This document shows positions 23,157-59,712 of a stretch of 64,000 bases of DNA, piece by piece. The notes under the pieces are model-generated. The model did not search any database and was not told the DNA's origin. It saw only the letters and a program-made list of their open reading frames with translations. The stretch spans positions 1,234,496 to 1,298,495 of the forward strand of contig CAVPHS010000001.1 in NCBI GenBank assembly GCA_963704805.1, given 5' to 3'. Source of the stretch: an uncultured Gemmatimonadales bacterium (lineage in GTDB: Bacteria; Gemmatimonadota; Gemmatimonadetes; Gemmatimonadales; GWC2-71-9). Within the stretch, counting starts at the first letter, position 1. Every line of letters starts with the position of its first letter. The position numbers were made by a program, and so were the translations under genes.

Positions 23157-23826
23157 GATGTAGGGGCGCAGCATGCTGCGCCCCTACGTCATTCGCGGAC
23201 CGCTATCTGCGCGAAAATGGTTATCCGTGCGTGCCCACCGAATCACATCGTGTACCAATGGACGGGCGATGGCATCCCGGCGTCAGCATGCACCGCCGGT
23301 CGATCAGACTACGTGGACGCGACTATTCAGCTCCCGGCACCTATCTGCTGACGATCTGCGCATGCTCTCACTTGTTTGGTCGTGTGCAAACTGGCGCGAT
23401 GATCCTGAGTCGATTTGGTGAGATCGCCCGTGAGTGTTGGACGGACCTTGCAAATCATTTCTCGCACGTCCGTTTAGACGCATTCGTTGTCATGCCTGAC
23501 CATATGCATGGCATTCTGGTCCTGGGCCGTCGCTCTGGACGTGCGTCCGCGGTAGGACGAATAGGCCCCGGATCGCTCGGCGCCGTCGTTAGATCGTTCA
23601 AATCAGCGGTTACGGCGCGGATCAATTCCGAGCGCGGCGCTTGCCCTGGTGGGATCTGGCAGCGGAATTATTTCGATCAAATCATTCGCAGTCGTACAGA
23701 TCTCGATCGTGTGCGACGGTATATTCGGGATAATCCGGTCAGGTGGGATCGCAAACGGCGCGCTCGGTTGGGTCGAAACAGCGCGACGTCTGAATGATGT
23801 AGGGGCGCAGCATGCTGCGCCCCTAC
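23157..23826 (+). mobile_element. RAYT unit: an IS200-like Y1 transposase gene bracketed by two identical REP palindromes
   Basis: GATGTAGGGGCGCAGCATGCTGCGCCCCTAC occurs at 23157-23187 and again at 23796-23826 in direct orientation. Each copy contains a perfect 28-bp palindrome. Confidence 0.8.
23231..23797 (+). CDS. REP-associated tyrosine transposase (RAYT, IS200/Y1_Tnp-like)
   Basis: An HUH motif (MPDHMHGILVL) and a catalytic-Tyr region (WQRNYFDQIIR) are present. The true start may be 23288. Confidence 0.8.
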   Translation: MPTESHRVPMDGRWHPGVSMHRRSIRLRGRDYSAPGTYLLTICACSHLFGRVQTGAMILSRFGEIARECWTDLANHFSHVRLDAFVVMPDHMHGILVLGRRSGRASAVGRIGPGSLGAVVRSFKSAVTARINSERGACPGGIWQRNYFDQIIRSRTDLDRVRRYIRDNPVRWDRKRRARLGRNSATSE

Positions 23827-23922
23827 CTACATCCCCTGCGTCCCTACCTAACGATTCGACGTCCACCCATGATCAGCGACGCCCCTGCCGAACGATCCGA
23901 CGCCGTCCTATGGGAGGATGCC

Positions 23923-26224: not shown

Positions 26225-26298
26225 CGGGACGTAGCGCAGCCCGGTAGCGCACCTGAATGGGGTTCAGGGGGTCGCGGGTTCAAATCCCGCCGTCCCGA
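26225..26298 (+). tRNA. tRNA-Pro (anticodon GGG), no encoded CCA
   Basis: A manual cloverleaf fits: acceptor CGGGACG/CGTCCCG, D stem GCGC/GCGC, anticodon stem CCTGA/TCAGG with loop ATGGGGT, and T arm GCGGG-TTCAAAT-CCCGC. Confidence 0.85.
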
Positions 26299-26431
26299 TT
26301 GTCGAAGTCGTTGTCTCCGCTGCAACTCCGGGGCGCGCGTCCGCGCGCTCCGAAATGCCTCCGCTCCCTTCTCCGCTACATTCATCGAAACTGCTACTGG
26401 GTCGGGTCACGCGACTGCGGGAGACGAACCG

Positions 26432-26653
26432 ATGAAAGGACAGGACCTGTATTACTGCCGGACGTGCGGCAAGGCGACGCTGCACATCGAGGACCAGACG
26501 AACCACCTGCTGCACCTGCTGCTGTCGGTGCTCACCGCGGGGGCGTGGATCATCGTGTGGATTCTCGCCGCGGCCAGCTTTCGCAAGCCCCGCTGTACGA
26601 TCTGCGGGACGTACGCCAAGTATCGCTATTTCCTTGGATACCGGCGGTCGTAA
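26432..26653 (+). CDS. small zinc-ribbon membrane protein
   Basis: CRTC...CTIC cysteine pairs flank one TM helix. Confidence 0.4.
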   Translation: MKGQDLYYCRTCGKATLHIEDQTNHLLHLLLSVLTAGAWIIVWILAAASFRKPRCTICGTYAKYRYFLGYRRS

Positions 26654-26983
26654 CCCGTCGAGGGTGGGGAGCTGGGCATCGCACGCTGAGAGCCGATCCG
26701 AAACGGCGCCACGTTTCGAATTTTCGTTTTCGATCGGCTCCGCGCGGGTGTAATCGACGAATTCGGTCGAAAAACGCGTCGAGGGAACGCGTTTTTTCCT
26801 CCCATTTGGCTCGCGATTTTCGAATTGCTCGCGAACGACCGAAAAACGCGCGATGGACTGCGCGCGCTCGGTCTCTGCTTCCAAATCAGGGGGTCGCTCA
26901 CCGCAACACGTTGACGGCGCAGCGTCTTAGCGAAGCGCTCCGCCATCTTCTCCGCCGAAAGTGGCCGCAAACCTGCGCCCCGC

Positions 26984-27361
26984 GTGCGCCTCGCGCGTTG
27001 CCTGCCCGTCACCTACCGCTGCGTGCGCACCGTGCCGGGTAACCCGAATTTGCGAGACTACGCGAGCGCTGGGGGGCATGCCCGCGCGCGTCGGCGGCTC
27101 ACGCTCGACCGCGTCGAGCGGGAGTTACCGCCGATGGACACGCCCGAGCATGTGCGCGCGGGACTGCAAACCGTCCAACGGTGGGCCGCCGCGGGGATGC
27201 TCGCGGGCACCGTCGCGGGCGCCTGCGTGCGCGCCGCGGAGGCGTGGCTCAAGCTCCACGAGCACGAGCTGGACCGGCAGCGGATGAAAGCGCTGGAGCA
27301 CCGAGTACGTGAGCTGGAGGCCGAGCTGGCGCAGCGTCCTCAGAGGGGGAGACTCCCGTGA
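26984..27361 (+). CDS. hypothetical protein with a C-terminal coiled coil (position suggests a small terminase, unproven)
   Basis: The ORF lies immediately upstream of TerL. No diagnostic motif was seen. Confidence 0.3.
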   Translation: MRLARCLPVTYRCVRTVPGNPNLRDYASAGGHARARRRLTLDRVERELPPMDTPEHVRAGLQTVQRWAAAGMLAGTVAGACVRAAEAWLKLHEHELDRQRMKALEHRVRELEAELAQRPQRGRLP

Positions 27362-27527
27362 CCGCGGACCGTAGTCGTGTCCCTGTGTCCCATGAGTGCC
27401 GGGACACGCGGACACGAGTCTCGACTCGGCCTCGGAAGGCCGTCACCGCGCCACGTTCTCGTGTCCCGCTGGTCTGGGGATCGGGGCAGGGCGGCCGATC
27501 CACGGGACACGATTCTCGGAGGGTCCA

Positions 27528-29054
27528 GTGAGTGGCCGGGACAGGCGGCTCGACGCACTGGAGCAGCGTGTGGGACGCGTGCACGTCCCGCGCAGCGGCA
27601 CGCACGCCGAGCCGTTCGCGGGCACGATGCTCGACGCCATGGACGCCGCGGGGCTCAGTGGACCGAGCTGGGCGGCGTGGCGCACGTTCTGGCGCGCCGT
27701 GTTCGCGTTGCCGCTGGGCGACGCCGAGCGCGCTGTGTTCGAGCGGCATACCGCGCGCAGTGCCGCGCCGCCCGCGCCGGTGCGCGAGGCGTGGCAGATC
27801 GTCGGGCGGCGCGGCGGCAAGAGCCGCAACGCGGCGGTTGCCGCCGCGTTCCTCGCAGTGCGCCAGGACTACGCGCCGCTGCTCGCGCCCGGCGAGCGCG
27901 GCGTCATTCCGATTCTCGCGGCCGATCGCACACAGGCGGGCCAAGTGCTCGGCTATCTCAAAGGACTGGCGCGCCGCGAGCAGTTCGCGCCGCACGTGGC
28001 GCGCATCCTCAAGGAAGCCGTGGAATTCCGGACCGGTGTCACGGTGCGCGTGCACACGGCGAGCTACCGGACCACGCGCGGCTACACCGTCGTCGGCCTC
28101 GTCGCCGACGAAATCGCGTTCTGGCGGTCCGACGACGAGGGCGTCAACCCGGACAGCGAAGTGCTCGCGGCGCTGCGGCCCGGCATGCTCACCATTCCCG
28201 GCGCGCTGCTGCTCGCCATGTCCACGCCGTACGCGTGCCGCGGCGAGCTGTACCGGGCGCACGAGCGGTATTTCGGCCGCGACGATCCGCGCGTGCTCGT
28301 GTGGAATGCCGACACGCGCAGCATGAACCCCGGCGCCGACGCGGGCGCGATCCGCGAGGCGTTCGAGGAGGACCCGGCGCGTGCCGCGGCGGAATACGGC
28401 GAGGACGGCCGCGTGCAGTTCCGCCGCGACGTGCAGGCGCTGCTCGATGCGGAGGCCGTGCGGGCGGCGATGGTTCCCGGCCGGCGCGAGCTGCCACCCG
28501 TTGGCGGTGTGTCCTACGTCGCGTTCACGGACCCGAGCGGCGGCAGCCAGGACGCCATGACGCTCGCCGTCGCGCACCGGGCGGGCGAGCGCGCCGTGCT
28601 CGACTGCCTGCGCGAGGTGCAGCCGCCGTTTTCGCCGGAGGCCGTCGTCGAGGAGTTTGCGGCGGTGCTCCGCGCGTACGGCGTGACCGAGGTGTGCGGC
28701 GACCGCTACGCGGGCGAGTGGCCGCGCGAGCGCTTCGCCGTGCACGGCCTCCGCTACGTGCCGAGCGAGCTGTCCAAGAGTGACCTCTACCGCGAGCTGG
28801 TGCCGCTGGTGAACGGCGCGCGGGTCGAGCTGCTCGACCTGCCGCGCCTCTACGGCCAGCTCGTCGGGCTCGAGCGCCGGGTCGCGCGCGGCGGGCGGGA
28901 CAGCGTGGACCATCCGCCCGGGGGCCGGGACGACGTGGCGAACGCCGCGGCCGGGGCGCTCGCCTTCGCAGCGGGCACGCCGTCGCCGCTGCTCGCGGCG
29001 TTGCTGGAGCGCGCGGTGTCGGCTGCGCTGCCGCCCTTGGAGCTGCCGGCATGA
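27528..29054 (+). CDS. phage terminase large subunit
   Basis: Walker A (GRRGGKS) and Walker B (VVGLVADEIAFW) are present. The GTG at 27528 is preceded by GGAGGG. The tracked start at 27396 lies inside the GTGTCC repeat region. Confidence 0.75.
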   Translation: MSGRDRRLDALEQRVGRVHVPRSGTHAEPFAGTMLDAMDAAGLSGPSWAAWRTFWRAVFALPLGDAERAVFERHTARSAAPPAPVREAWQIVGRRGGKSRNAAVAAAFLAVRQDYAPLLAPGERGVIPILAADRTQAGQVLGYLKGLARREQFAPHVARILKEAVEFRTGVTVRVHTASYRTTRGYTVVGLVADEIAFWRSDDEGVNPDSEVLAALRPGMLTIPGALLLAMSTPYACRGELYRAHERYFGRDDPRVLVWNADTRSMNPGADAGAIREAFEEDPARAAAEYGEDGRVQFRRDVQALLDAEAVRAAMVPGRRELPPVGGVSYVAFTDPSGGSQDAMTLAVAHRAGERAVLDCLREVQPPFSPEAVVEEFAAVLRAYGVTEVCGDRYAGEWPRERFAVHGLRYVPSELSKSDLYRELVPLVNGARVELLDLPRLYGQLVGLERRVARGGRDSVDHPPGGRDDVANAAAGALAFAAGTPSPLLAALLERAVSAALPPLELPA

Positions 29055-29695
29055 GCGCGCCGGTTATTGGCGTGCATTTGCCCGGCCCGGGCGGGGATGC
29101 GGCGGCACTCGCCGTGGTGCAGCGGCGCGAGCAGACCATCCGCGCGGACGAGCGCGACGAGCAGCGGGCCGTCGAGCAGGCGCTGCTACTGCGCGCGGAG
29201 CCCGCCCTGCTGCGGCGAGGCGTGCAGCGGCGCGTGTCCTGCTTTGATGTGGTGCACCTCGGCCAGCTCGCGTCCGACAGTTCAGTGGCGACCGTCGCGG
29301 GCGAAATCCTGCGGCTGAAGCGTGTGGCCGGGCTCGCGCGCGCGGACCTCGTGGCGGATGGGAGCGCCGTCGGCGCGCCGGTCGTCGAGGAGCTGCGGGC
29401 GCGGGGCTTGGACCCGCGGCACCTCCTCGTTACAGACAGCGGACCGGCGGGCCTGGGCGACGACGGCATCCGGCGCGTCCCGGCCGCGGACCTCGCGGGC
29501 CTGCTGCTCGTCTTGCTGGAAGCGGGCCGCCTGAAAATCGCGGCGGCGTTGCCGGACGCGCCGGTCGTCGTTGAGCAGTTGCGGCGCGTCGGCGCGCGCC
29601 CGGGGCCGCTCGCGGTGGCGCTGCTGCTCGCGGTGTGGTGGGCCGAGCAGCACGGGGCGTACGAGCCGGAGGACTGGCCGGTGCTGCAGTTCTAA
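29051..29695 (+). CDS. hypothetical phage protein (214 aa)
   Basis: It overlaps the TerL stop by ATGA. No motif was recognised. Confidence 0.4.
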   Translation: MSAPVIGVHLPGPGGDAAALAVVQRREQTIRADERDEQRAVEQALLLRAEPALLRRGVQRRVSCFDVVHLGQLASDSSVATVAGEILRLKRVAGLARADLVADGSAVGAPVVEELRARGLDPRHLLVTDSGPAGLGDDGIRRVPAADLAGLLLVLLEAGRLKIAAALPDAPVVVEQLRRVGARPGPLAVALLLAVWWAEQHGAYEPEDWPVLQF

Positions 29696-29772
29696 ACCGC
29701 TCGGGGTCCCTGTCCGGCTAGTCACCGGCGGGGCGTAAGGGGCTACGGACTCCAGCCCGCCCCGGGGCCGGG

Positions 29773-30156
29773 CTACTGCCTAGGTTCCGACCAACCGTCA
29801 ACCTTCTCGTCAACGAACGTGACCCTGGCGCCGGGATAGTGCCAGATGGTGAGGTATCCGGCATCCACGCTCTCGGGCTCGCCGAGCAATTTGCGGACCT
29901 CATCCATCTTCATCCCGCGGCGCAGTCGGCGCCAGTTCGCAAGCGACGTTGGGACTGCCCGGCTTCCCGATGGCTCAACCCTGATGAGGGCCTCCAGTTC
30001 ACTGACGCGTCGTTCGAGGTCGGCAGTCCTGCGCTGGAGAGAATCGATCCGGCGCAGAAGGCTGTCGGCTGACACGTTCTGTCCGACCGCGACGGTCGGG
30101 ATGGAGGCGGCCGTAAACGCGGCGACGAGCGCTGCACGGAATATGGCGGTCATCAT
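29773..30156 (-). CDS. secreted protein with a coiled coil and a BamE/SmpA-like C-terminus
   Basis: A signal peptide (MMTAIFRAALVAAFTAASIPTVAVG) and the segment MDEVRKLLGEPESV are present. Confidence 0.45.
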   Translation of the reverse strand: MMTAIFRAALVAAFTAASIPTVAVGQNVSADSLLRRIDSLQRRTADLERRVSELEALIRVEPSGSRAVPTSLANWRRLRRGMKMDEVRKLLGEPESVDAGYLTIWHYPGARVTFVDEKVDGWSEPRQ

Positions 30157-30255
30157 GGGCCTCCTTCGGCAAGGCACAGCGGCGCTCTGCCAGTAGGGAT
30201 TTGAGTGGACGGCGTGGGTGAGCGGCATAACGAGATGCGCCTAAGCTCTGGTTGA

Positions 30256-31002
30256 TCACCACCGTTCCTTTGGCTTCCAAGCCGGGTCGGTGAGGTAACC
30301 GTAGAGCATCGATGCGGCGGCGGTGGGCCAATCCGCGCCGTCCTTCGGCCAGTTCGTTTTGACCAGCATAACGCCAAACGTGACCCTCAACAGATTAGCG
30401 AGCGAATCCCTTTCGGTAGTCGTCAGCTTGATGAATTCGAGCCGATGCGTCGCAGGGTTGGAGGTCACGATCCCGTCCGCAGCCTCCGCAGTGGCGACGA
30501 GAAGCATCTCGCCGTTCGCGTGCTCTTTTTGCGAAAGGGAGGCCAAGCTATCGGCCATAGTGCCGGAGCCCATCATGGGGGCGAGCTGATCGATGGCATC
30601 GAGCCCGCGCTTGAACATGTCGGCTTTGGCGCGGGTGATTCTCGCGAGGCCGTCAAACGCCTCAGCCGCCCACGAGGCACTTCTGTAGAAGCCGCTGTCC
30701 TTGGCGGTGCTCATGGAACGGCGCAGCAAGCTCGCTGCGCAGTCGTACTCGCTTGCCGTCACTCTGAATTTGTAGAGTAAATCAGTCGGATTCGTTGTCG
30801 TGTCGTCGCGGGTTGGTTCATTGTCCACGGCAGCTTTCGCATGCCGCAGACTGGCAACATAAAGTGCCGTGAAGCCAGCTGGTGTGGTTGAACCTGCCAG
30901 CGGTGGTACACACATCCACTGTGCGCCCGCGTCCCGGTTCCCCATCGGGGACAAGATGGCCGTGGCCAGGAGGGTGATGTATCGACGCGAAAGGCACCGC
31001 AT
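30256..31002 (-). CDS. hypothetical secreted protein
   Basis: The likely start is MRCLSRRYITLLATAILSP. The upstream part of the tracked ORF runs through a repeat. Confidence 0.4.
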   Translation of the reverse strand: MRCLSRRYITLLATAILSPMGNRDAGAQWMCVPPLAGSTTPAGFTALYVASLRHAKAAVDNEPTRDDTTTNPTDLLYKFRVTASEYDCAASLLRRSMSTAKDSGFYRSASWAAEAFDGLARITRAKADMFKRGLDAIDQLAPMMGSGTMADSLASLSQKEHANGEMLLVATAEAADGIVTSNPATHRLEFIKLTTTERDSLANLLRVTFGVMLVKTNWPKDGADWPTAAASMLYGYLTDPAWKPKERW

Positions 31003-31225
31003 GTCGATTGAGTCTACAACTCCCGCCACGATGCGCCAATCAATGCGGCCTACTGTCGAAAGGACCAGCCTGGTAGGGCGGCAGTCAGTCAGGGGTCTCG
31101 GTCCGGGCTGATCACCGGCGGGGCGTAGGGGGCTGCGGCATCTAGCCCGCCCCGGAGCTGAGAACGCCGCAACTTCGCCTCTCAATGCCGCAAAATCGCC
31201 CTAAACCCCGGGCCCGGGCGTTATC

Positions 31226-32422
31226 ATGATATGCCCCATGCCCACGCATCGCCCGACGATCAATCCGGCCCTGCTCGTCTGGGCGCGCCGCTCGCTGAAC
31301 CTCACCGAGGAACAGGCGGCGACGCGGGTAGGCGTGTCGCTCGACATCTTGCGCGGGTGGGAGAAAGGCGATCCGCTCCCCACAATCGCGCAACTCCGCA
31401 ACGCCGCCGAGAAGTACCGCCGGCCGCTCGGCGTATTCTTTCTGCCGACACCGCCCGCAGACCCGGCTCCCCCGCATGACTTTCGGACAGTTTCCGACCG
31501 GGAAGCCGAGGAGCTTAGTCCCGAGTTACTCGTCGAGCTGCGGCGCGCGCACTATCGCCGTCAACTCGCGCTAGAGCTGCACGAGGACCTCGAACGCCGA
31601 CCGCCGCGCTTCCAACTGCGCGCGCAGCTTGACGACGACGAGGAGGAGACGGGCCGACGTGTCCGCCACGCGCTCGGCGCTCGGCTCGCGGATCAAGAGC
31701 GGTGGCGCGAGGGGAGCGCCTTCAACGAGTGGAAGGCGCTCGTTGAGGCGCACGGGGTGCTCGTGTTCCAGGCGCGCGGCGTGTCCTTTCGCGAGGCGCG
31801 CGGGTTTTCGATTGCCGAGCACCCGTTGCCCGCCATCGTCGTCAACGGTTCGGATTTCCCCAACGCCAAGACGTTCACGCTCCTGCATGAGTTTGTGCAC
31901 CTCATGCTGCATCTCGGCGGCATCTGCGATCCGTACGCACATGTTGCCCGTGGCCGCTCTCGCAACAGCCGCGTCGAAGTGTTCTGCAACCACGTCGCGG
32001 GGGCGGCGCTCGTGCCCGCGGCGGCGCTGGTCAATCATGGTCTGGTGCAATCGAACGAGGAGCCCGAGGGATGGACGGAGGCGACGCTCGACCGGCTCGC
32101 GCGCGACTTCGCCGTTAGCTCGCTCGTCATCCTCCGCCGGCTGCTCATGCTCGGCCGGACCACAACACGCTTCTATGAGAGCTTTCAAACGCAGGTCATC
32201 GCGCGGGCGGAACGACACCGCGCCGAGCGCCCGCCGCAGGAAGGCGGACCGCCGCGGCCCGTTATGGTCGTCGCCGACTTGGGCCGAGCCTTCACCGGAA
32301 CCGTGCTCGATGCGTACAAGAGCCGCGTCATTACCGCCTCGGACGTATCGGAGTACCTCCGCGTCCGCGTTCCGCAGATCGGCGCGGTACAGGAGCGCCT
32401 TACCCTGGGCGCTGGTGAGTAA
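31226..32422 (+). CDS. XRE-type HTH fused to an ImmA/IrrE family metallopeptidase
   Basis: An N-terminal HTH (LTEEQAATRVGVSLDILRGWEKG) and the zinc motif HEFVHLMLH are present. Confidence 0.8.
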   Translation: MICPMPTHRPTINPALLVWARRSLNLTEEQAATRVGVSLDILRGWEKGDPLPTIAQLRNAAEKYRRPLGVFFLPTPPADPAPPHDFRTVSDREAEELSPELLVELRRAHYRRQLALELHEDLERRPPRFQLRAQLDDDEEETGRRVRHALGARLADQERWREGSAFNEWKALVEAHGVLVFQARGVSFREARGFSIAEHPLPAIVVNGSDFPNAKTFTLLHEFVHLMLHLGGICDPYAHVARGRSRNSRVEVFCNHVAGAALVPAAALVNHGLVQSNEEPEGWTEATLDRLARDFAVSSLVILRRLLMLGRTTTRFYESFQTQVIARAERHRAERPPQEGGPPRPVMVVADLGRAFTGTVLDAYKSRVITASDVSEYLRVRVPQIGAVQERLTLGAGE

Positions 32423-32469
32423 CGCTGTTCTCATTCGATACCAGCGCACTTATTGGCGCACATAACGAG

Positions 32470-32880
32470 TTGTATCGGCCGCAGACGTTCCCCGGTCTGT
32501 GGCGAAAGCTGGAAGCGATGATCGCCGAGGGTGAGCTGCGCTGTTCGGAGGAGGTGCTCCACGAGCTGGAGCGCCAGGACGATGACTTGCTCAAATGGGC
32601 GAAGGCTCAGAACGGCCTCTTTGTCCCAATGGACGCCGAGATTGAAGCGGCGGTCAAAACCGTCGTTGTGATTCCCAACGTCGTAAAGAACGCCTCGACC
32701 GACAACTCGGCAGACCCGTTCGTTGTGGCGGTTGGCATAGCGCGGAAGGCGACGGTTGTGAGCAGGGAGAAGCCCGGTAGCGCGCAACGCCCCAAAATCC
32801 CGTACATCTGTAGTGCGTTGAGTGTGCCTCACCAAACACTGGAGGAGTTTGTGACCGGGCAGGGGTGGTCATTTGAGTAG
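32470..32880 (+). CDS. DUF4411 (PIN-like) protein, partner of ImmA/IrrE
   Basis: The pairing is typical and the sequence fits (FPGLW...SEEVLHELERQDDDL...ADPFVVA). The conserved-looking N-terminus (LFSFDTSALIGAHNEL) extends upstream to about 32425 with no ATG/GTG/TTG. Confidence 0.65.
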   Translation: MYRPQTFPGLWRKLEAMIAEGELRCSEEVLHELERQDDDLLKWAKAQNGLFVPMDAEIEAAVKTVVVIPNVVKNASTDNSADPFVVAVGIARKATVVSREKPGSAQRPKIPYICSALSVPHQTLEEFVTGQGWSFE

Positions 32881-32901
32881 CTACTCCGCGAGGAGGCATT
32901 A

Positions 32902-33924
32902 GTGGGAGACTGTCTGTATTGCGGGAAACCCGCCGGTTGGTTCCGCTCAAAGCACAAAGAGTGCGAGACCAAAAACCAGATAGGCCGCGAACAGATCGTC
33001 GCGCTCGCTCAGCGGGCCGTCAGAGACGGGAGCGACCTGACCGCCGTTCAGAGCGAGGTCGGGCGACTGGCGGCAACCGCCTTCGTCCCCCCGGATGAAC
33101 TGCCCAAGTTGTGGCTGACGGCGTGGGAGAACGCCGTGCAAAGCGCGTTGGAGGATAACGTAGTCACAGCCGACGAGGAAAAAGCACTCGTTCGGGCGGC
33201 GGAGCACCTCGGCTGGAAACAAGAAGACTTCTACACTAACGGCGCGTTCGTGAAGCTCGTGCAGGCAGGTGTGTTGCGGGACCTCATGGAGGGAAAACTT
33301 CCTGCGAGGTTTGAAGTCAAAGGACAGCTACCATTCAACTTCCAAAAAGGCGAGGAATTGCTCTGGGCGTTCCCCGGCGTGAAGTACTTCGAAACGCGGA
33401 TGCGACGGACGTTCGTCGGCGGTTCGCAAGGATTCAGCGTGCGGGTTGCGCGCGGCGTCTATTACCGGGTCGGAGGTTTTCGGGGCGAGGCCATACAGAA
33501 TCCCGAGACCGTGTTGGTGGACACGGGAACGCTCGGTGTGACGCAGAAGCACCTCTACTTTGCCGGGCCGTTGAAAAGTTTTCGAGTGCGGTTCGACAAG
33601 ATCGTGTCGTTTACGCCGTATTCCGACGGAATCGGCTTTCAGCGAGACGCGTTGACGGCGAAGCCCCAGGCGTTGCTCACTGGCGACGGGTGGTTCATTT
33701 ACAATCTGGTCACAAACCTCGCCAGCATGGAAACAGAGGAGCCGTCGAACGTGGAGCGACGCGCCCGGAAGTTTATTCCCGCTCGGGTGGAAATTGAGGA
33801 AGAAGCACCGGCACCGACCTGGACAAGATGTTCTCGCTCGCAATTGTCGGTGAATCACACTATCAGGACGCGCTGGAAGCAATCTGCGGCGAGCGGGACG
33901 ACGATGGCGTTGACCGCGTCGTGA
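32902..33924 (+). CDS. hypothetical protein with an N-terminal zinc ribbon
   Basis: CLYCGKPAGWFRSKHKEC is present. The 3' end overlaps the HIRAN ORF by about 97 nt in another frame. Confidence 0.4.
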   Translation: MGDCLYCGKPAGWFRSKHKECETKNQIGREQIVALAQRAVRDGSDLTAVQSEVGRLAATAFVPPDELPKLWLTAWENAVQSALEDNVVTADEEKALVRAAEHLGWKQEDFYTNGAFVKLVQAGVLRDLMEGKLPARFEVKGQLPFNFQKGEELLWAFPGVKYFETRMRRTFVGGSQGFSVRVARGVYYRVGGFRGEAIQNPETVLVDTGTLGVTQKHLYFAGPLKSFRVRFDKIVSFTPYSDGIGFQRDALTAKPQALLTGDGWFIYNLVTNLASMETEEPSNVERRARKFIPARVEIEEEAPAPTWTRCSRSQLSVNHTIRTRWKQSAASGTTMALTAS

Positions 33925-34169
33925 ACGCGTCGCTCGTGCTGGAAGGCTCCAACCCCTACGATCCGCAGGCGGTTCGTGTCGACATCGACGGCAAGACAGT
34001 GGGCTACCTGAGCCGACCTACCGCCCGCGCCTTCCGCCAACAGGTTGCAGCTGGCCAACCCGAAGGAACAGCGTTGCCGTGTAAGGCTAGGATCAAAGGC
34101 GGTTGGGATCGCGGCCCGGAGGACCAAGGCCAATTCGGCGTCTGGCTCAACCTGTCGTTGGAAGGCTGA
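33828..34169 (+). CDS. HIRAN domain protein
   Basis: IVGESHYQDAL...NPYDPQAVRV...GKTVGYL is present. Confidence 0.7.
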   Translation: MFSLAIVGESHYQDALEAICGERDDDGVDRVVNASLVLEGSNPYDPQAVRVDIDGKTVGYLSRPTARAFRQQVAAGQPEGTALPCKARIKGGWDRGPEDQGQFGVWLNLSLEG

Positions 34170-34389
34170 CCAGCGACGCCGAGACTTTTGGTAGTTTTGG
34201 CACTACAAAATCGGAGAATCTTCTACTTGCAGCCGTTCGGCTGCTCACTAAATTGCGTCTTACCATAGCGGCATCGGCCGCGTGACTGGCGGACCCCTCG
34301 CTCCGGCGGAGCGAGGACACAGCCGCAAGACCTCAGTGACTGCCACTTGGAGCCAACTGCTCCGGGTGGCTTTCGTTTTTGGGGGGACA

Positions 34390-34584
34390 ATGCCCGCAAC
34401 GCGCCTACATCGTCTGACCATTCGGTTTCGTGGGCAAGAGGCGCAGCTCGTCAAGGTCGTCGCCGGGCGTCAGGGATTGTCGTTCGCCGAGTGGGCGCGC
34501 GCGGCGTTGCTGCGTCATGCGCAGCTCGAACTCGACCCGGCACCGGTGAACGGTCGCCGCGCCGAGCCGAGCCGGCAGGCCTGA
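34390..34584 (+). CDS. ribbon-helix-helix (CopG-like) DNA-binding protein
   Basis: RLTIRFRGQEAQLVKVVAGRQGLSFAEWARAALL is present. Confidence 0.5.
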   Translation: MPATRLHRLTIRFRGQEAQLVKVVAGRQGLSFAEWARAALLRHAQLELDPAPVNGRRAEPSRQA

Positions 34585-34585
34585 C

Positions 34586-35971
34586 GTGCCTGACGGCGAC
34601 TTGTTTCTCGCGCTGCGCGAAGCTCTTGGAAGCGTGGAGGGCGAGAACAACGGCCACTTCACAGCACAGTGTCCGGCAGGTGATCATCGGCTCGTGGTCC
34701 GCCGTGGTCCCGACCGGAGCGCGTTCGTCGCGTGTCCGACCTGCGGTAGCGCTGCCGGACCCGCGCTCGCCCACCTGCTCGATGTGCCCGTACACGTCGC
34801 GCCGACAGCGGCGGACACGAATCACCGTGCGGATGCGCCCCGGAGACCCGCGCGCGTGCCTGACCGCTTGACGCATATCCGCCACTTTCTCGCCGAGCCT
34901 GACGACCCGGTGTCGTGGATCGTGGACGGCCTGCTGCCCGCGGGCGGGATGTCGGTGCTCGCTGGAAAGCCGAAGGGCGGCAAGAGCACGCTCGCGCGCG
35001 CGATGGTCCTCCGGGTCTGCCGGGGTGAGCCAATCCTGGGCCGCATCACGACGGCAGGGCCGGTGATTTACTTGGGCATCGAGGACCCGCGCCGCGTGAC
35101 GAAGAATCATTTGCGCACGCTTGGCGCTCGACCCGACGACGATCTGTACGTGTTCACGGGGCACCGTCCCGACGAGGCGGTGCTGTGGCTGGAAGATGTT
35201 CTGGCGACGGTGGACCCGGTGCTCGTCGTAGTTGACACGCTCCAGCATCTGCTCGGCGTGAGCGACCTCAACGACTACGCGCGGGTCGTCGCCGCGCTCG
35301 GTCCAGTGTTGGCGCTCGTGCGGCCACGCCGGGCGCACATGCTGCTGATTCACCACGCCGGCAAGGGTGACCGCACGGGCTTCGACGCAATTCTCGGTTC
35401 CACGGCGATTGTCGGGACCGTGGACGTGGCGCTCTTGCTCAAGCGCGGAGCGGACAACGTCCGCACCCTGACCTCGCTGCAACGCACCGGCGAGGACCTG
35501 CCCGAGCGCGTCGTAACGCTCAACGATCAGCAGGAGCCTCAGCTCGGCCCCGCGAAAGAGGCATACGACACGCAACAGGCCGGGGAACGCGTGCTCGCGT
35601 GGCTCCGCACGCAGACCGAGCCGGTGACCCGAAAGGCCGTCGAGGAAACCGTCGAGGGTCGCGCCGAGCTGGTCCGCGGGGCGCTGTACCAACTCGTGCG
35701 GGACGACAAGGTGACGCGGACCGGCGGCGGGAGGCCGGGCGACCCTTACCTGTTCTCGTGTCCGCGTGTCCCTGTGTCCGGGCCTATACCGGGACACGCG
35801 GACACGACGTCGCAAACGGGCGAAACGTCCCGCGCTTCTGCCACTTCCTCGTGTCCCGTTAATCCGGCAACCGCGTCGCCCCAGGACACAATCCGTGACG
35901 CGAATTCTGGCGATGCCGCCGAGCCCGACGGTCCGGCGGACACGTCGTTTGACTTCCCGAGGGAGGATTGA
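34586..35971 (+). CDS. RepA/AAA_25-like replicative ATPase with an N-terminal zinc finger
   Basis: Walker A (AGKPKGGKST), Walker B (VLVVVDTLQ), LLIHHAGKG and CPAGDH...CPTCG are present. Confidence 0.7.
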   Translation: MPDGDLFLALREALGSVEGENNGHFTAQCPAGDHRLVVRRGPDRSAFVACPTCGSAAGPALAHLLDVPVHVAPTAADTNHRADAPRRPARVPDRLTHIRHFLAEPDDPVSWIVDGLLPAGGMSVLAGKPKGGKSTLARAMVLRVCRGEPILGRITTAGPVIYLGIEDPRRVTKNHLRTLGARPDDDLYVFTGHRPDEAVLWLEDVLATVDPVLVVVDTLQHLLGVSDLNDYARVVAALGPVLALVRPRRAHMLLIHHAGKGDRTGFDAILGSTAIVGTVDVALLLKRGADNVRTLTSLQRTGEDLPERVVTLNDQQEPQLGPAKEAYDTQQAGERVLAWLRTQTEPVTRKAVEETVEGRAELVRGALYQLVRDDKVTRTGGGRPGDPYLFSCPRVPVSGPIPGHADTTSQTGETSRASATSSCPVNPATASPQDTIRDANSGDAAEPDGPADTSFDFPRED

Positions 35972-36666
35972 TGCCGATGCCCAACAACCTGAAATCGCTG
36001 ATCAAACATCGCGACGCCGCGGCTGCGAAGGTGGCCGCGCTGGAAGCGCGCCGCGCGGAGCGGCGGCGCGAGCACGCGACACTCACCGACGACATCGCGG
36101 CGCTGGACGAGCAGCTCGTCACCGCGGACGCCGCGGGCGAGGCGGTCACGGTGCTGGAGGCCGAGCGTGCGCAGCGGCTGCAGCGCCAGCGCGACCTCGC
36201 GGCCGTCCTGCCGCTCTTGGAGCAGCAGCTCGCCGAAGCGCGCGCCGAGTTGCACGCGGCCCGCCTCCAGGTGGGGGGCGCGCAGCTCGCGGCGGACGAG
36301 CGCGCGCTCATTGCGGACGGGCTCGCGTTCGCGGAGGAATTCGGTCGTGACGTGCTCGCGGTCTACGGGCCGCGTGCGACGGAGTTACTCAGCCGCCTGG
36401 AGCACCTGGGGCGGGACGAGCATGAGGTAGACCAACTGAACGGCCGCCGCGCCCGCGGCTGGACGGCGCGGGACCGCTTCATCCGCGACACGCGGCTGCT
36501 CATGCAGCAACTCATCGTCCTATGCGAGTGGGCACACGGCCGGCCGACGCAGCTCGACCGGTCGCAGCCTGCCGAGTCGGACCGGCCAGAGACTGAGTTG
36601 GACCGGCGGCTACGGCTGCACTCGACCGTCGCTGAGGCGTCGCGTCGGCTGGGATTGTCACGCTGA
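35968..36666 (+). CDS. coiled-coil hypothetical protein
   Basis: It overlaps the upstream stop. The N-terminal half is heptad-rich. Confidence 0.45.
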   Translation: MMPMPNNLKSLIKHRDAAAAKVAALEARRAERRREHATLTDDIAALDEQLVTADAAGEAVTVLEAERAQRLQRQRDLAAVLPLLEQQLAEARAELHAARLQVGGAQLAADERALIADGLAFAEEFGRDVLAVYGPRATELLSRLEHLGRDEHEVDQLNGRRARGWTARDRFIRDTRLLMQQLIVLCEWAHGRPTQLDRSQPAESDRPETELDRRLRLHSTVAEASRRLGLSR

Positions 36667-36696
36667 AGTAGTGAACCTGAAACAGAGGAGCGAGTC

Positions 36697-36915
36697 ATGG
36701 CATTCACGAAACCTGTTCGCCGGGCGATGTGGCATTTGGACCGGCGACTCCGCGCGTACAAGAGAGCCGTCACGCAGCACCTCGCCAACCTGGACGCGAC
36801 GATCGCCGAGAACGGAGGCGAAGCAGATGCCGAGATCGTCGCTGGCTGGACGGCTCCGGAGTTTCTGGCCGGGTTCAAGGCGCTGCGCGATGCCCTGAAA
36901 AACTTCCCGGCCTGA
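36697..36915 (+). CDS. hypothetical protein (72 aa)
   Basis: The ORF is preceded by GAGGAG. No motif was recognised. Confidence 0.35.
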   Translation: MAFTKPVRRAMWHLDRRLRAYKRAVTQHLANLDATIAENGGEADAEIVAGWTAPEFLAGFKALRDALKNFPA

Positions 36916-36922
36916 GCATTGT

Positions 36923-37252
36923 GTGACGAGTGCCGAGCTGGCCGAGCTGACCAAGCTGGTCGCGTTCTGGCGCGAGCAGGCCGCCGCCTACGAACAAGAC
37001 GGCCAGCCCGGCACGGCCTTGCTCCGCAGAGTGGCCACCGAGCTGGACGAGGCGGTGCGGGGCCTCGGCCTGGAGGAGTTGACGGTGGCGCAGGCGGCGG
37101 CGGAGAGCGGTTACAGCGCCTCGCAGCTCCGGCGGCGGTTCCCGGGCCAGCGGACAATCCGCCGGGCGGACCTGCCCCGGAAGGGGCGGCACGGTGGGCC
37201 GGACCTGGCGGGGGCCGTCTTGCGAGGGACCTACCATGGTGGTAGGTTATAG
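36923..37252 (+). CDS. HTH protein, excisionase-like
   Basis: LTVAQAAAESGYSASQLRRRF is present. The gene lies near the integrase. Confidence 0.45.
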   Translation: MTSAELAELTKLVAFWREQAAAYEQDGQPGTALLRRVATELDEAVRGLGLEELTVAQAAAESGYSASQLRRRFPGQRTIRRADLPRKGRHGGPDLAGAVLRGTYHGGRL

Positions 37253-37257
37253 GGACG

Positions 37258-37530
37258 ATGACCCTACAGAATGTTGTCCGCCAAGCGATTGCCGACGCCC
37301 CGCGCTCTTTGCGTTCGTTGCGGGCGTTGGCCAAGGCCGCCGGTATCTCGCACGTCACCCTGATGCGTATTCGCGATGGGGACGAGCCAGCGAGTGCGCG
37401 CGTCGCCGCAAAGCTCGCCCAGGTGCTTGATGCCTGGGCGGCCGAGCACGCGCGCGATGCCGAGAAGTGTGCGCGGTCCTCCTCGCGGATTCGGACGGCG
37501 TTGCGGGGTTCGACAGGGAGGGCAGAATGA
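37258..37530 (+). CDS. HTH DNA-binding protein
   Basis: LRALAKAAGISHVTLMRIRDG is present. It overlaps the integrase start by ATGA. Confidence 0.45.
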   Translation: MTLQNVVRQAIADAPRSLRSLRALAKAAGISHVTLMRIRDGDEPASARVAAKLAQVLDAWAAEHARDAEKCARSSSRIRTALRGSTGRAE

Positions 37531-38819
37531 CCACGACAGCAGCACAGCTCCCCACCGCCAAGACTCGACGCCGCACGCGCTGGTCGTGGTCGGTCGGAGA
37601 GTACGGCGAGCGCGTCCTCGTGTTCGAGGAGCGGAACGGGCGCCTGTACGGCCAGATTCGCGGCCGCCGCGTCGCGCTTGGCCACAAGGACCGCGACCGG
37701 GCGAAGACGTGGGCGAAGGATCAGGAGAAGCAGCTCCGCGACGGGCTCGCGACCGCGGCCGACCCGACGCCGACCGTCGCCAAGGTGTTCGCGGCGTACC
37801 TCGCGGCGCGCGCGGAGCAGGACCTCTCCGCCACGTCGCGGTACGTGGACGAGCGGTGCGGCGGCCGCCTGCCCGATCCCAAGGTGCCCGGCGACGCAGG
37901 CGACCCCGGCCTGTTCGCCCGCGTGCTCGGCGCGGGCCGCGACCTCTCCAAGCTCACGCTCGGCGAGTGGCAGCACTTCATCCGCCAGCGGCTGACCGGC
38001 GCCGTGGACGCGTGGGGCCGGGACGTGCCCGCCCCGGTGACGCCCGAGGACGCGAAGCGGCGACCGGTCCGCGCCCGCACGGTGGAGGCCGACTGCGAGT
38101 GGCTCGCGATTGTCTGCAACTGGGCGACCGAGTGGGAGGACCGCGAGACCGGCCAGCCGCTCCTCCGCGAGCATCCGCTCAAGCGGGAGCGCTTCCGCGA
38201 CGCCGTGCCGCACGAGCAGAACCCGCGTCGGCCGGTCGCGACGCAGGACCGCTACGAGGCCATCGTGGCCAAGGCGGCGACCGTGCACCCGTACCTCGTG
38301 CCTCTGCTCGCCATCGTGAACGGCGCGGGCCGCCGCATCTCCGCGGTGCTCCAGCTTCGCTACGAGGACGTGCGGCTCGCCAAGACGGCGGGCGCGCCCT
38401 ACGGCGCGATTCAGTGGCCGGGGGAGTCGGACAAGATGGGGAAGGCGTGGGCCGCGCCGATCAACGCCGCGGTGCGCGCGACGCTCGACGCAGTGCTCGC
38501 CGCGCGGCCCGGACTCGGCGGGGCGTACCTGTTTCCGTCGCCGATGGACCCGGCGCAGCCGATGGACCGGTGGTTCGCCTCGAAGCTGCTGCGCCGCGCC
38601 GAGCGGCTCGCCAAAGTGCCGAAGCACCACGGCTCACTCTGGCACGCCTACCGGCGGAAGTGGGGCACGGAGCGGAAGCACCTGCCGGTCCAGGACGTGG
38701 CGCAGGCGGGCGGATGGAAAAACACGGCGACGCTGGAGACGATTTACCAGCAGCCCGACGAGGCGACGCTCTACCGCGTCGTGTCCGAGCCAGCCGAATT
38801 GCGGGAAGCGCACGCGTGA
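37527..38819 (+). CDS. tyrosine-type site-specific integrase
   Basis: The C-terminal catalytic region (LWHAYRRKW...GGWKNTATLETIYQQ) is present. The gene ends 131 nt before attR. Confidence 0.85.
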   Translation: MTTTAAQLPTAKTRRRTRWSWSVGEYGERVLVFEERNGRLYGQIRGRRVALGHKDRDRAKTWAKDQEKQLRDGLATAADPTPTVAKVFAAYLAARAEQDLSATSRYVDERCGGRLPDPKVPGDAGDPGLFARVLGAGRDLSKLTLGEWQHFIRQRLTGAVDAWGRDVPAPVTPEDAKRRPVRARTVEADCEWLAIVCNWATEWEDRETGQPLLREHPLKRERFRDAVPHEQNPRRPVATQDRYEAIVAKAATVHPYLVPLLAIVNGAGRRISAVLQLRYEDVRLAKTAGAPYGAIQWPGESDKMGKAWAAPINAAVRATLDAVLAARPGLGGAYLFPSPMDPAQPMDRWFASKLLRRAERLAKVPKHHGSLWHAYRRKWGTERKHLPVQDVAQAGGWKNTATLETIYQQPDEATLYRVVSEPAELREAHA

Positions 38820-38950
38820 GCGCGCTCCGCTATTTCCTCCGCCAAGTCTTGCGCGCATCCTGCGTGTCTAGCGTGCGGCGCGCGCGTATGGCGCGCATCG
38901 TTGAGCACGAACCCGCGCACGATGCGCGAATCCGGCGCCACCGGCGACGG

Positions 38951-38992
38951 ATGGGGTTCAGGGGGTCGCGGGTTCAAATCCCGCCGTCCCGA
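38951..38992 (+). repeat. attR: 42-bp copy of tRNA-Pro positions 32-73
   Basis: It is identical to 26257-26298. Confidence 0.85.
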
Positions 38993-43837: not shown

Positions 43838-43853
43838 CTGAGTGAAGATCAAG

Positions 43854-52045: not shown

Positions 52046-52251
52046 TTGGAGTTAGGCATCTTCCAAGCCGACTGATCAATAGTCGGCTCAATAGTTCCGC
52101 AGTCTCGTTAAGCCGTGTCCGCAGGACTTAAGACGTATGAAAACTGCCCTCGACCCTAGGACGACTTTCTGACACGCTGACCCAATGCCGCGCGGAACCG
52201 CAGGCGTCCTCCACTGTTTTCTACAACACTCTTTCGACTCGGACCTGCGAC

Positions 52252-53250
52252 GTGAGAAATGCCTTGCGACCGTGGGCGGTCGCGTTCCTCGGACTGCTTG
52301 GCTGTCGCGGTGAACCCCTGGTTTCGCCGGAAGGCGAGCCGGGCGTCTACCCGGTCGGCAGCACCATGCTCACGAGTCTTGCGGCGCTGGATGTGCTCGG
52401 TGACACCCGCCGCGACCTCGTCGCCGTCGCCCGCGGTGACCTGACAATCCGCATCCTGCCGGGCGACACCGCGGGTACCTTCGCGGCGCCGCTCGCCCTC
52501 ACGGCGGGAAACGACGCCCGCCGGGCGACCGCCGGAGATGTGAACGGCGACGGCGTCCCCGACCTGCTCGTAATCGGGCACGACAACGTGTTCATCGTGC
52601 GGCTCGGCCTGGGCAGCGGCCGCTTCGCCGATGGGGTGAAGTACCCCCTCCGCAACCACGGGAACTTCATCCTCGTCGCCGATCTCAACGGGGACGCGTT
52701 CGACGATGTCGTGGCCGTGCACGACGGCTCGGGGAACCCGGTGTACGTCACGGCCTACCTCGGCTCCGCGAGCGGAGCGCTGCAGCCGGTGTGGGAGATG
52801 GGCACGACCTACTTCACCTCGATGGGGCTCGCCGCCGGCGACTTCGACGCCGACGGCAAGACCGACGTCGCAGTCGCCGTCGGCGACAACCGCGCCGCGG
52901 TGTTGGTGTTCCGCGGACAGGGGACGGGGGAGTTCGCCGCGCCGCTCGTACTGCCGACGCTCTCGCCCGATCCCCGCACAACCGACGGCACGACCGCGCT
53001 GGCCGTGGGGGATCTCGACGGGGACGGCCGCGACGACGTCGTCGTGGCCTGCTACGCCTTCAGCAACCGGCTCGTCATCCGGGGGTCGCGGGTTGAGCTG
53101 CGGCCGCTTCGCGGCCTCGCTCCGCTTGACCGGCTGCAGCCGGTCACCGGCGCTTCGCGCCGGACGCGTCAAATCCCGCCGTCCCGACTGAGTGAAGCCC
53201 TGCAACGTTGCTGGTTGCAGGGCCTCTTTTCAGGCGAGGTTAAACGATAA
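52252..53250 (+). CDS. FG-GAP/VCBS repeat lipoprotein, with a 3' end that reads through a tRNA-derived site
   Basis: A lipobox (LLGC) is present. The repeats GDVNGDGVPDLLV, ADLNGDAFDDVV, GDFDADGKTDVAV and GDLDGDGRDDVVV occur. The tail from about 53082 is tRNA-fragment and terminator sequence. Confidence 0.65.
   Translation: MRNALRPWAVAFLGLLGCRGEPLVSPEGEPGVYPVGSTMLTSLAALDVLGDTRRDLVAVARGDLTIRILPGDTAGTFAAPLALTAGNDARRATAGDVNGDGVPDLLVIGHDNVFIVRLGLGSGRFADGVKYPLRNHGNFILVADLNGDAFDDVVAVHDGSGNPVYVTAYLGSASGALQPVWEMGTTYFTSMGLAAGDFDADGKTDVAVAVGDNRAAVLVFRGQGTGEFAAPLVLPTLSPDPRTTDGTTALAVGDLDGDGRDDVVVACYAFSNRLVIRGSRVELRPLRGLAPLDRLQPVTGASRRTRQIPPSRLSEALQRCWLQGLFSGEVKR
53082..53188 (+). repeat. tRNA-Pro 3' fragment (GGGGGTCGCGGGTT ... 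TCAAATCCCGCCGTCCCGA) interrupted by a ~74-nt GC-rich insertion
   Basis: 14 nt plus 19 nt match tRNA positions 44-73. The insert at 53096-53169 contains three short hairpins. Confidence 0.7.
53199..53231 (+). terminator. rho-independent-type terminator
   Basis: The sequence reads CCCTGCAAC-GTTGCTG-GTTGCAGGG followed by CCTCTTTT. Confidence 0.55.
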
Positions 53251-57831: not shown

Positions 57832-59712
57832 TCAGCTAGACTCGAGCCCCACCGCCCCCGCCGGCCGCAGCCCCGCCAAAAGGCGCTCATAACGCGGATT
57901 GCCATGCAGGGCGTCGAACTCCGGCCGACGCAGCGCGGCCCAGAGGTAGGGGACGGGTGACGCGCGCTCCAACCGATCCAGTGCGGCCGCTGTATCGCCC
58001 ACCGCCACCAACGCCGCCATGACGAGCCAATGCTCGGTCCGCCCCGGCCAGTGCGCAGTCAGGGCCCGAGCTCGGGTGCTGTCTCCCGCGCGGGCGAGGA
58101 CAGTGGCGAGCACGCTTTCCATAACCATGTCCCCAGGCTGCAGCTGGTTGGCCAGCTCAGCGTCCTCCTGAGCTCCGCGCACGTCGCCCGCCCGAAGGCG
58201 GGCTAACGCCCGCCACCGCCGCGAGAAAGCCGAGCCAGGGTCGAGCGCGACGGCGCTGTCGGTCAGCGCCACGGCGAGCGCGGTTTCGCGAACGTGCGTC
58301 CACGCCAGATCGACGAAGGAGATCGCGCGTCCCGGATCGAGCGCGAGCGCCAGGCGCTGCTCCCGATCGGCCTCATCGGACCGCCCGAGCCAGTTGAGGA
58401 TCGAGCCGTATTGATGGTGCGCCTCTGCGTTCTTGGGGTCGAGGGCGATGGACTGCTCGAACGCCTGCACCGAGCCGTCCAAGGTGCGGGGGTGGGCGAA
58501 GGCGAGGAGGTAGCCGCGTGCCATCCAGGCGTCGGAGCAGGTCGAATCGCGGCGCAGCGCGCGGTCGGCGACGGCGAGCCCGCGGATTGCCAGGCTCTCG
58601 ATCGGTGTGTCAGGCAGCCGATAGTGGTTGCCGCGCGCGATCGCGTGCGCGTAGGCCGCTCGTCCGATCGCCGCGGCAAACCCGGAGTCGAGCCGCTCGG
58701 CTTCCCGATACTCAGCGAGGGCCCGGGCGGTCCCATCCGGTGACCGGCGCGCCAGAAAGAAGTTGCCTCGCAGAAAATGGTCGTAGGCAGCCGGGCTCTG
58801 GGTGCGCACCGCGCCTAGCACGGTTTCCCACGACGAGGCCGAGCCGCCCACGTGCAGCGCCACCTCCCGGGCGATGACCGAGGGCAACGCGAGCAGCTCG
58901 TCCGGCGACCGATCGAACACGTCGCCCCACGCCGCAAGCGCCGTCGTCCCATTCAGGAGCCGGATCGACACCCGGACGCGCGCGCCCACGCGCCGCACAT
59001 TGCCGTCCACCAGGTAGCGCACACCGAGCGCACGGGCGATCGCCGGCACGTCGCCCGGCGACGCCCGCTGCGCGCGCCGCACCACGCCGGGCGACTTCAC
59101 CTGCACACTTGCCACGCTGCCGAGGAGGCTCGTGAGGTCTTCCGTCAAGCCGTCGGCCAGATAGGCGTCGGCCGTGTCGCGTGCTGCGAAATACAGCACG
59201 GCGACTCCGTTCGCGACATCGGCCCCCGGCGCAGTTGCCTGGGGACGGCTCCAGGGATGCCACAGGCCGGCGATGGATGCGAGGGCGACCGCACCCGCGA
59301 TGACGGCAACCGTGGCTGCCCTGGACGGGTGCTCCTCAGAACGGACACTCGGCACCGCTTCCGAGGCGACCACGGCATCGATCGGCGCGATGAACCGGTA
59401 CCCGCGACGCGGCAGCGTCTCCACCAGTCGCGGGTTCTCGGCCGAGTCGCCCAGGGCGCTGCGGAGTCTGTGAATCGCTTTGTCGAGGCCGACATCGAAT
59501 TCCACAAACGTGCCGGCGGGCCAAATCGTCTGGCGCAGGTCCTCCCGCGTCACCACTTCGCCGGGATGCTCCAGGAGGAGCGCCAAGATCCGAAACGGCT
59601 GCTGCTGCAGCTTGATTTTGATCCCCTGCTTGAAGAGCTCGCCCGCATGAAGGTCGACTTGGAACACGCCGAACCGGACGACTCGTCGAGCAGATCGCTG
59701 GGGATTCTCCAC
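57832..59712 (-). CDS. CadC/OmpR-type winged-helix regulator with one TM helix and a C-terminal TPR region
   Basis: The N-terminal region FGVFQVDLHAGELFKQG..IKLQQQPFRILALLLEHPGEVVTREDL...LPRRGYRF is present. Confidence 0.8.
   Translation of the reverse strand: MENPQRSARRVVRFGVFQVDLHAGELFKQGIKIKLQQQPFRILALLLEHPGEVVTREDLRQTIWPAGTFVEFDVGLDKAIHRLRSALGDSAENPRLVETLPRRGYRFIAPIDAVVASEAVPSVRSEEHPSRAATVAVIAGAVALASIAGLWHPWSRPQATAPGADVANGVAVLYFAARDTADAYLADGLTEDLTSLLGSVASVQVKSPGVVRRAQRASPGDVPAIARALGVRYLVDGNVRRVGARVRVSIRLLNGTTALAAWGDVFDRSPDELLALPSVIAREVALHVGGSASSWETVLGAVRTQSPAAYDHFLRGNFFLARRSPDGTARALAEYREAERLDSGFAAAIGRAAYAHAIARGNHYRLPDTPIESLAIRGLAVADRALRRDSTCSDAWMARGYLLAFAHPRTLDGSVQAFEQSIALDPKNAEAHHQYGSILNWLGRSDEADREQRLALALDPGRAISFVDLAWTHVRETALAVALTDSAVALDPGSAFSRRWRALARLRAGDVRGAQEDAELANQLQPGDMVMESVLATVLARAGDSTRARALTAHWPGRTEHWLVMAALVAVGDTAAALDRLERASPVPYLWAALRRPEFDALHGNPRYERLLAGLRPAGAVGLESS

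Follow-up and report, generated by a model that had tools for sequence, protein, structure and literature searches.

The 3′ part of a tRNA-Pro gene at positions 53081-53187 of the window, the whole 64-kb stretch of Gemmatimonadales DNA analysed here, is a retired att remnant. It contains one representative of what appears to be an undescribed family of three-hairpin elements resident in T loops. In tRNA-derived fragments, this structure-conserved module is inserted precisely, in one orientation and at one specific position. tRNA genes are the commonest landing sites of integrating elements, and the fragments left over are usually deemed inert scars. The module occupies one exact T-loop position in at least four tRNA identities and in three families of an abundant soil order. 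It points either to a tiny element with tRNA-arm specificity, which could endanger live tRNA genes and might serve as a tool for site-directed insertion, or to an unrecognised structural component of integrase-less cassette arrays. Either reading, if true, would add a new player to the tRNA-anchored gene-cassette systems of Gemmatimonadales. Such units also yield false read-through open reading frames (ORFs), such as the tail of the adjoining FG-GAP gene, and at array junctions they fragment short-read assemblies.

The reference for the fragment is the intact tRNA-Pro(GGG) gene at 26225-26298 on the forward strand (ARAGORN; 64.5 bits with the Rfam tRNA model), which is the sole tRNA gene in the window and the anchor of its cassette array. 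Two pieces of the site match this gene at 100%, both on the forward strand. The left piece is an exact 14-mer at 53081-53094 and comprises the variable loop, the 5′ strand of the T stem and the TT of the T loop. The right piece is an exact 19-mer at 53169-53187 and supplies the rest of the T loop, the 3′ strand of the T stem, the 3′ acceptor strand and the discriminator. Between them lies a gap of 74 nt (53095-53168), and together they hold one T more than the unbroken tRNA sequence. A preliminary description of this DNA had reported a tRNA-Pro 3′ fragment broken in the T loop by a 74-nt insert; exactly these pieces are present, with coordinates one base lower.

The right piece is the core common to all array sites. 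It occurs eight times in the window as an exact copy, against 0.03 expected, and nowhere else in the 3.64-Mb genome; its further copies, all on the same strand as the tRNA gene, begin at 38974, 43819, 45367, 52027, 53169, 55476 and 57764. The left 14-mer has only four copies genome-wide, so the match is not due to chance, a doubt that had been raised about it. One of these copies, at C2:297895, lies inside no tRNA according to ARAGORN. In relatives, the match to the tRNA reaches further upstream, as far as the anticodon loop, with arm-like sequence before it; the unit in the window is therefore a truncated version.

Structurally, the insert (53095-53168, forward strand; 74 nt, or 75 with one flanking T) is a three-hairpin element according to folding, to a covariance model built for it (R1) and to the family alignment. 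The first hairpin, HP1, spans 53095-53122 and is followed by an unpaired CGCT linker. HP2 (53127-53146) is a perfect 20-nt palindrome, and HP3 (53147-53163) leads into an ACGCG tail, all on the forward strand. The three hairpins proposed earlier were borne out by folding, with z-scores of −3.6 as DNA and −3.8 as RNA; none of 200 shuffled sequences folded equally well. R1 scores the window copy at 92.3 bits, its sole strong match in the genome. At 53138, the middle hairpin of the window has one A more than the 19-nt version in its six closest relatives within the genus (L173-L178), which gives the perfect 20-nt palindrome, containing CTGCAG.

Covariation was analysed on 41 model matches, giving 38 distinct rows in an alignment that had been fitted to R1's own structure. 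There, 94.0% of cells fall in standard pairs, compared with 78.0% in shuffled alignments and 30-51% in slid controls. Changes on both sides are seen in 21 of 26 pairs (10.7 after shuffling), and the covariation score is 0.358 (0.104 after shuffling); none of 500 shuffles reaches any of the observed pairing or covariation values. Palindromes can, however, retain their symmetry through self-templated repair without selection. Conservation at the sequence level is found in the unpaired CGCT between HP1 and HP2, in the ACGCG tail and in most of HP1.

Because all three stems covary and the unit stands between an upstream gene and a terminator, the hairpins could act in RNA: they might stabilise the 3′ ends of cassette transcripts or signal their processing, or they might belong to a small structured RNA. 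Variants also turn up among the contigs of one RNA library (X15, two contigs), although contigs from such a library are no proof of transcription. We put little probability on this role. On the tRNA strand, wobble pairs number 9 G-T against 17 A-C, a ratio that is not decisive for the strand of function; G-T is not favoured, so the counts give no support for a sense-strand RNA. In Rfam searches, tRNA is the only family at the gathering threshold in the window, and the hairpins of nine loci match no family at E up to 1. Moreover, an RNA role leaves the T-loop position unexplained.

That position is highly specific. Together, the two flanks of the element match exactly the 3′ portion of an intact tRNA close by, namely Pro-GGG in the window, Arg-CCG at L240, Ala-CGC at L213 and Gln-CTG at L215 and L219; a tRNA-Leu case (L238) has messy flanks. 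GGT stands directly 5′ of the element in 34 of 40 matches and TCA or TCG directly 3′ in 30 of 40. The join therefore reads GGT^TCRA plus one extra T, and the orientation is constant in all copies. When the element was removed in silico, a complete tRNA was recovered at 0 of 36 sites; fragments alone carry it. A tRNA intron, whether group I or bulge-helix-bulge, was rejected on this result and on the lack of any Rfam intron match. GGTTCRA occurs 909 times in the genome, and 867 of these sites are not in any of its 53 tRNA genes, so the 7-mer alone cannot account for the placement. No convincing copy was found at a non-tRNA GGTTCRA site; L205 and L241 lie in a hairpin context of unassigned kind.

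The junctions themselves consist of universally conserved T-loop bases, and the single ambiguous T is what a microhomology remnant would be expected to leave. With the very low copy number and a second target, GGGGTTCAGG, that has the same bases, these features would suit an enzyme-free spread by microhomology template switching or gene conversion between T arms (GGTT, TCRA) during replication of hairpin-prone fragments. We regard such a spread as distinctly unlikely: microhomologies of 4-5 bases are available at the 909 places in the genome, yet the element is seen only in tRNA fragments, and repeated exact capture of the whole 75-nt module is improbable by chance.

Elsewhere, the element takes shorter forms (HP1 only) and longer, nested ones, and related short and long inserts are found at GGGGT^TCAGG of the tRNA-Pro anticodon stem. 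At L186 (G053:C12, 3340-3526), for example, a tRNA-Pro 3′ half is cut at two places, by a 62-nt GC-rich insert at GGGGTT^TCAGG in the anticodon stem and by the three-hairpin element in the T loop; the two inserts have the third hairpin and the ...CGCG end in common. L243 (G316:C63:5769-8861) has 12 tRNA genes within 2 kb by ARAGORN and 14 Rfam matches, and a nested 93-nt form of the hairpin element lies there between two clustered tRNA genes. At L211 (G438:C61, about 1472-1620), additional segments, located close to HP1 and within the 3′ acceptor strand, are mutually complementary, as though a long-range helix had been added across the unit.

The surroundings of the site in the window are those of a cassette array. 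An integrative element with a tyrosine integrase gene (37467-38819) occupies 26299-38992, and its far-end site (E1, 38949-38992) has 43 nt of unbroken tRNA identity. Beyond 38992, the core is preceded by a 105-nt scaffold at five sites, with a sixth such site 3.9 kb beyond the end of the window; the blocks between array sites hold ordinary accessory genes. Among ORFs from 38993 to about 67900 there is no Phage_integrase match, the only one being at 37467-38819. The present site shows exact 3′ identity to the tRNA gene in the same orientation and bounds acquired DNA, as expected of a tRNA fragment at a boundary; no cognate integrase was found within the bounded element. Both the post-core motif and the terminator described earlier are present. 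The motif, CTGAGTGAAG (53188-53197, forward strand), comes directly after the core and recurs after the core at 43838. With the terminator-like hairpin (53197-53223) and its T run, it forms a feature at 53188-53231 (forward strand) that starts the next cassette, which encodes Hsp20, BON and PsiE. An apparently empty unit is seen at L183 (G054:C100, 8225-8407, minus strand), where a GC-rich hairpin and another 19-nt core come no more than about 90 nt after an intact tRNA-Pro with its terminator.

Williams is said to have described, in 2002, T-loop and anticodon-loop sublocations of integrases. As in the known tRNA fragments and CIMEs, same-orientation exact 3′ tRNA repeats here bound foreign DNA downstream of an intact tRNA; unlike there, the fragment is interrupted by a conserved structured element, which is the new feature. 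tRNA gene fragments left by integration are the subject of PMC9897764, and in a term search of that article the words hairpin, T-loop, inserted and interrupted do not occur. Full-text literature searches yielded no description of hairpin elements in the T loops of tRNA fragments.

Genome searches show that the element is rare within a genome and recurrent across the order. A search for further copies of the insert, which the preliminary description had envisaged, found no second one in the 3.64-Mb genome by blastn-short, regular expressions or R1; the best extra match (30 bits, E 0.1) lies in coding DNA. By DNA search, 7 of the 49 further genomes from the genus contain the unit of left piece, insert and core, at 83-98% identity. 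At E up to 1e-6, it was matched in 36 of 401 genomes of the order, representing 19 of 104 genera and all three families. With the insert-only model R1, 17 of 151 family genomes are positive, each with 1-2 copies. In a phylum sample, R1 detected the element in 12 of 151 genomes, all from the order's three families and with up to three copies (G127), and in 0 of 46 genomes from nine other families. Viral contigs in IMG/VR gave no match to the HP1 pattern. The family is thus low in copy number (1-3 per genome) and confined to one order in the genomes searched. Insertion inside an att core had been called unusual; it recurs at exactly this place across the order. The unpublished genomes G009 and G017 count only in the tallies of the genus unit, of FG-GAP orthologues and of Y1_Tnp genes.

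Filled sites have empty counterparts. Homologous sites without the element, with the same upstream arm and an unbroken tRNA-Pro 3′ half, occur in 5 of 401 genomes, and two genomes (G278 and the unpublished G244) contain empty and filled sites together. Three genera (G023, G082 and G175) have letter for letter the same element, which shows transfer of the whole site. Elements from different tRNA contexts are 80-89% alike, which shows that the element has changed context. No contig from the sequencing runs crosses the site, the share of the stretch covered being 0.27 or less.

Among the options raised earlier for the insert, a tiny mobile hairpin element is the best fit, given a conserved and covarying family, the same T-loop position in at least four tRNAs, and filled and empty sites; a scar is rejected. 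We give about an even chance to a low-copy miniature hairpin element that homes to the T loop in retired att-site remnants by means of a putative enzyme. On this account, the site would be a retired recombination-site remnant, the 3′ portion of tRNA-Pro(GGG) that stayed behind at a boundary in an integrase-less cassette chain that is anchored on the tRNA-Pro gene. The non-coding three-hairpin element of about 75 nt would have invaded the T loop between T54/T55 and C56. Its family would land at GGT^TCRA of T arms and, now and then, at a similar sequence, GGGGTT^CAGG, in the anticodon stem of tRNA-Pro, in constant orientation and with at most one T duplicated. Such insertion would presumably be enzyme-mediated and strand-specific, on hairpin-forming and probably single-stranded DNA; HUH/Y1-type single-strand transposases are only a candidate among known enzymes, by analogy. 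Insertions into working tRNA genes would be lost, which may be why copies persist only in dead fragments. The whole site, including the element, would then move between genera with its cassettes. A later deletion at the site in the window, with a 2-nt microhomology (GG), would have removed the site's upstream arm, the first ten bases at which it matches the tRNA and about 106 codons from the end of the FG-GAP gene, and so produced the read-through ORF.

Several points count against a mobile element. No transposase or other enzyme is linked to it, and its copies are far fewer than those of REPs or MITEs. Its constant orientation and its covariation are compatible, too, with a structural component of a recombination site that is kept by selection, and where copies are identical in several genera, it is the whole site that was transferred, not the element that transposed. 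Perhaps many tRNA-Pro copies go back to a single insertion, so that independent events are few, about five or six.

In another reading, the hairpins would be a structural component of the cassette recombination sites that is under selection, comparable to the variable stem of integron attC, and would spread between sites by recombination, not as an independent transposon. As folded single-stranded DNA, they would assist an integrase acting in trans, or regulate it. The stems vary in sequence while keeping their structure, the CGCT and ACGCG linkers stay constant, the orientation does not change, and the element always lies beside the 19-nt core. Additionally, three unrelated site families (the 105-nt scaffold, the three-hairpin element and the G054 site) all have a GC-rich hairpin 4-7 nt before TCAAAT. 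The cassettes lack integrases, and the missing excess of G-T over A-C (9 against 17) suits a palindrome that works at the DNA level. Like integron attC, these are folded, structure-conserved and sequence-variable sites at the boundaries of integrase-less cassettes; unlike attC, the site derives from a tRNA gene. The two integron core motifs are not both present: only a GTTRRRY-like GTTGAGC is found at the left junction, with no RYYYAAC inverse core at the right, and no integron integrase IntI was found among the scanned ORFs. Homologous sites exist without the element, E1 among the sites that lack it, and the element also occurs in fragments abutting an intact tRNA-Ala and in a tRNA cluster that looks free of cassettes. 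We consider a structural part of the recombination site unlikely. The idea that the insert blocks further recombination is doubtful, because the anticodon-loop part and the whole 19-nt right part stay intact in relatives.

Tentatively, and with somewhat less than even confidence, we propose that this is either an undescribed gene-less miniature element homing to the T loop of tRNA-derived DNA (T-arm hairpin, GGTT^CRA; seen only in retired fragments) or a folded-DNA device at the tRNA-derived junctions of integrase-less arrays.

Comparison with known systems places the putative mobile element near several groups, each with distinctions. PATEs, which derive from IS200/IS605, have subterminal hairpins at both ends, insert in one orientation at a short specific target and duplicate 0-1 nt. 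The present element likewise has subterminal hairpins (HP1 and HP3), a single orientation, a short 5′ target and an ambiguous T; its ends are of the IS200/IS605 type, with hairpins at both ends, no inverted terminal repeats and GGT 5′ in 34 of 40 matches. It differs in that no cognate TnpA with matching ends was found in the flanks of the two Y1 genes of the genome under study (G000), in being much shorter than the minimal ends of PATEs, and in a target that is apparently the T arm of tRNA and not every GGTT. Hairpin loops are also the homing targets of IS1397 (REP loops), of IS1111-attC elements and of group IIC introns. The likeness lies in the hairpin loop as target, and nested loop insertions are seen in this family too (L240, L243); those elements, however, are autonomous and 1-2 kb long, whereas the present one is gene-less and 75 nt long.

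Like REPs and REPINs mobilised by RAYTs, the element is a small GC-rich non-coding unit of hairpins with no terminal inverted repeats and no clear target duplication. Unlike them, it has one copy here (1-3 per genome searched) rather than tens to hundreds, and it consists of three different hairpins in fixed order with a strict T-loop location. REPs tagged GTAG and CGTC are described in PMC3733652. CGTC adjoins HP3 on the opposite strand in most copies of the element, namely those ending GGACGCG, and not in those ending GGGCGCG or GGTCGCG; no GTAG tag was found beside an element stem. Y1_Tnp genes are present in 38 of 50 genomes of the genus. A RAYT was considered as the mobiliser and rejected, since both RAYT genes of G000 are flanked by other, GTAG-tagged palindromes. 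The RAYT gene in the window (23231-23797, forward strand) scores 66 bits against the NCBIfam REP_Tyr_transpos model, below its cut-off of 80. One GTAG-tagged palindrome stands on both of its flanks (about 23161-23188 and 23800-23827, within the region 23158-23827), and this half-palindrome has 28 copies in the genome. The second RAYT, at C1:1744678, has its own, different REP.

Upstream, the fragment is fused to a gene. The first 277 codons of an FG-GAP repeat gene (52252-53082, forward strand; Pfam FG-GAP_3 and FG-GAP) form a 3′-truncated remnant, which is continued in translation by a 55-codon tail (53083-53250, forward strand) to which no homologue aligns. The ORF at 52252-53250 has the codon bias of a real gene. 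It stays open through the tRNA fragment, as the preliminary description had observed, and through insert, core and terminator. With an E-value limit of 0.001, protein searches gave 827 FG-GAP homologues, of which the closest are 379-389 residues long and cover 82-83% of the query; the best is 95% identical. Identity ends at ...SNRLVIR, after which the homologues go on for about 106 residues that are absent from the window. At the DNA level, homology to the metagenome contigs L092, L093 and L094 runs from 52240 or 52265 to 53081 or 53082, and two public metagenome contigs (runs X1 and X3) depart from the window sequence exactly at 53082. The proposed alignment to homologues thus showed that homology stops at 53082 and that none of them shares the C-terminal tail.

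With homology ending there, the 55-codon tail is the translated tRNA fragment, insert, core and terminator. It is an accident and shows no sign of function. The natural 3′ end of the gene has been lost, because homologues of about 383 residues diverge after ...NRLVIR and none has the tail. The preliminary description had taken this end to be replaced by the recombination site; its loss stands, and a separate later deletion, not replacement by the site, would account for it. The two bases at 53081-53082 (GG) are at once the last homologous FG-GAP bases and the first bases of the left tRNA piece, and the FG-GAP/tRNA boundary is, judging from this overlap, a deletion junction with a 2-nt microhomology.

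In this genome the insert is single-copy and the ORF stays open through it, which would also be seen if the insert were a one-off scar or repair filler DNA, or if the sequence were genuinely part of the FG-GAP coding region. These explanations are scarcely credible: the same insert is found in dozens of genomes with no adjacent FG-GAP gene, FG-GAP orthologues occur in 0 of 40 relatives, and the homologues lack the tail. An origin of the insert from the lost FG-GAP 3′ end was likewise rejected, as the resemblance in MAFFT alignments is weak and the insert occurs without FG-GAP in other genomes.

Since the orthologue is absent from the 40 relatives and present only in G000 among the 41 genomes, the FG-GAP gene lies on acquired DNA. 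Close homologues were found in other genomic contexts, and a protein search of the genome contigs gave relatives at no more than 36% identity among the matches listed. DNA homology to the orthologues begins at 52240, 12 nt before the start codon, so the native upstream region (52046-52251 in the window) has also been replaced in the cassette. On the metagenome contig L094, some 2 kb separate an intact FG-GAP gene from a homologue of the window's regulator gene (57832-59712), and positions 14-263 of this contig are 77% identical in DNA to 57846-58095. In the window, the regulator gene lies past two further cassettes and in the orientation opposite to that in L094.
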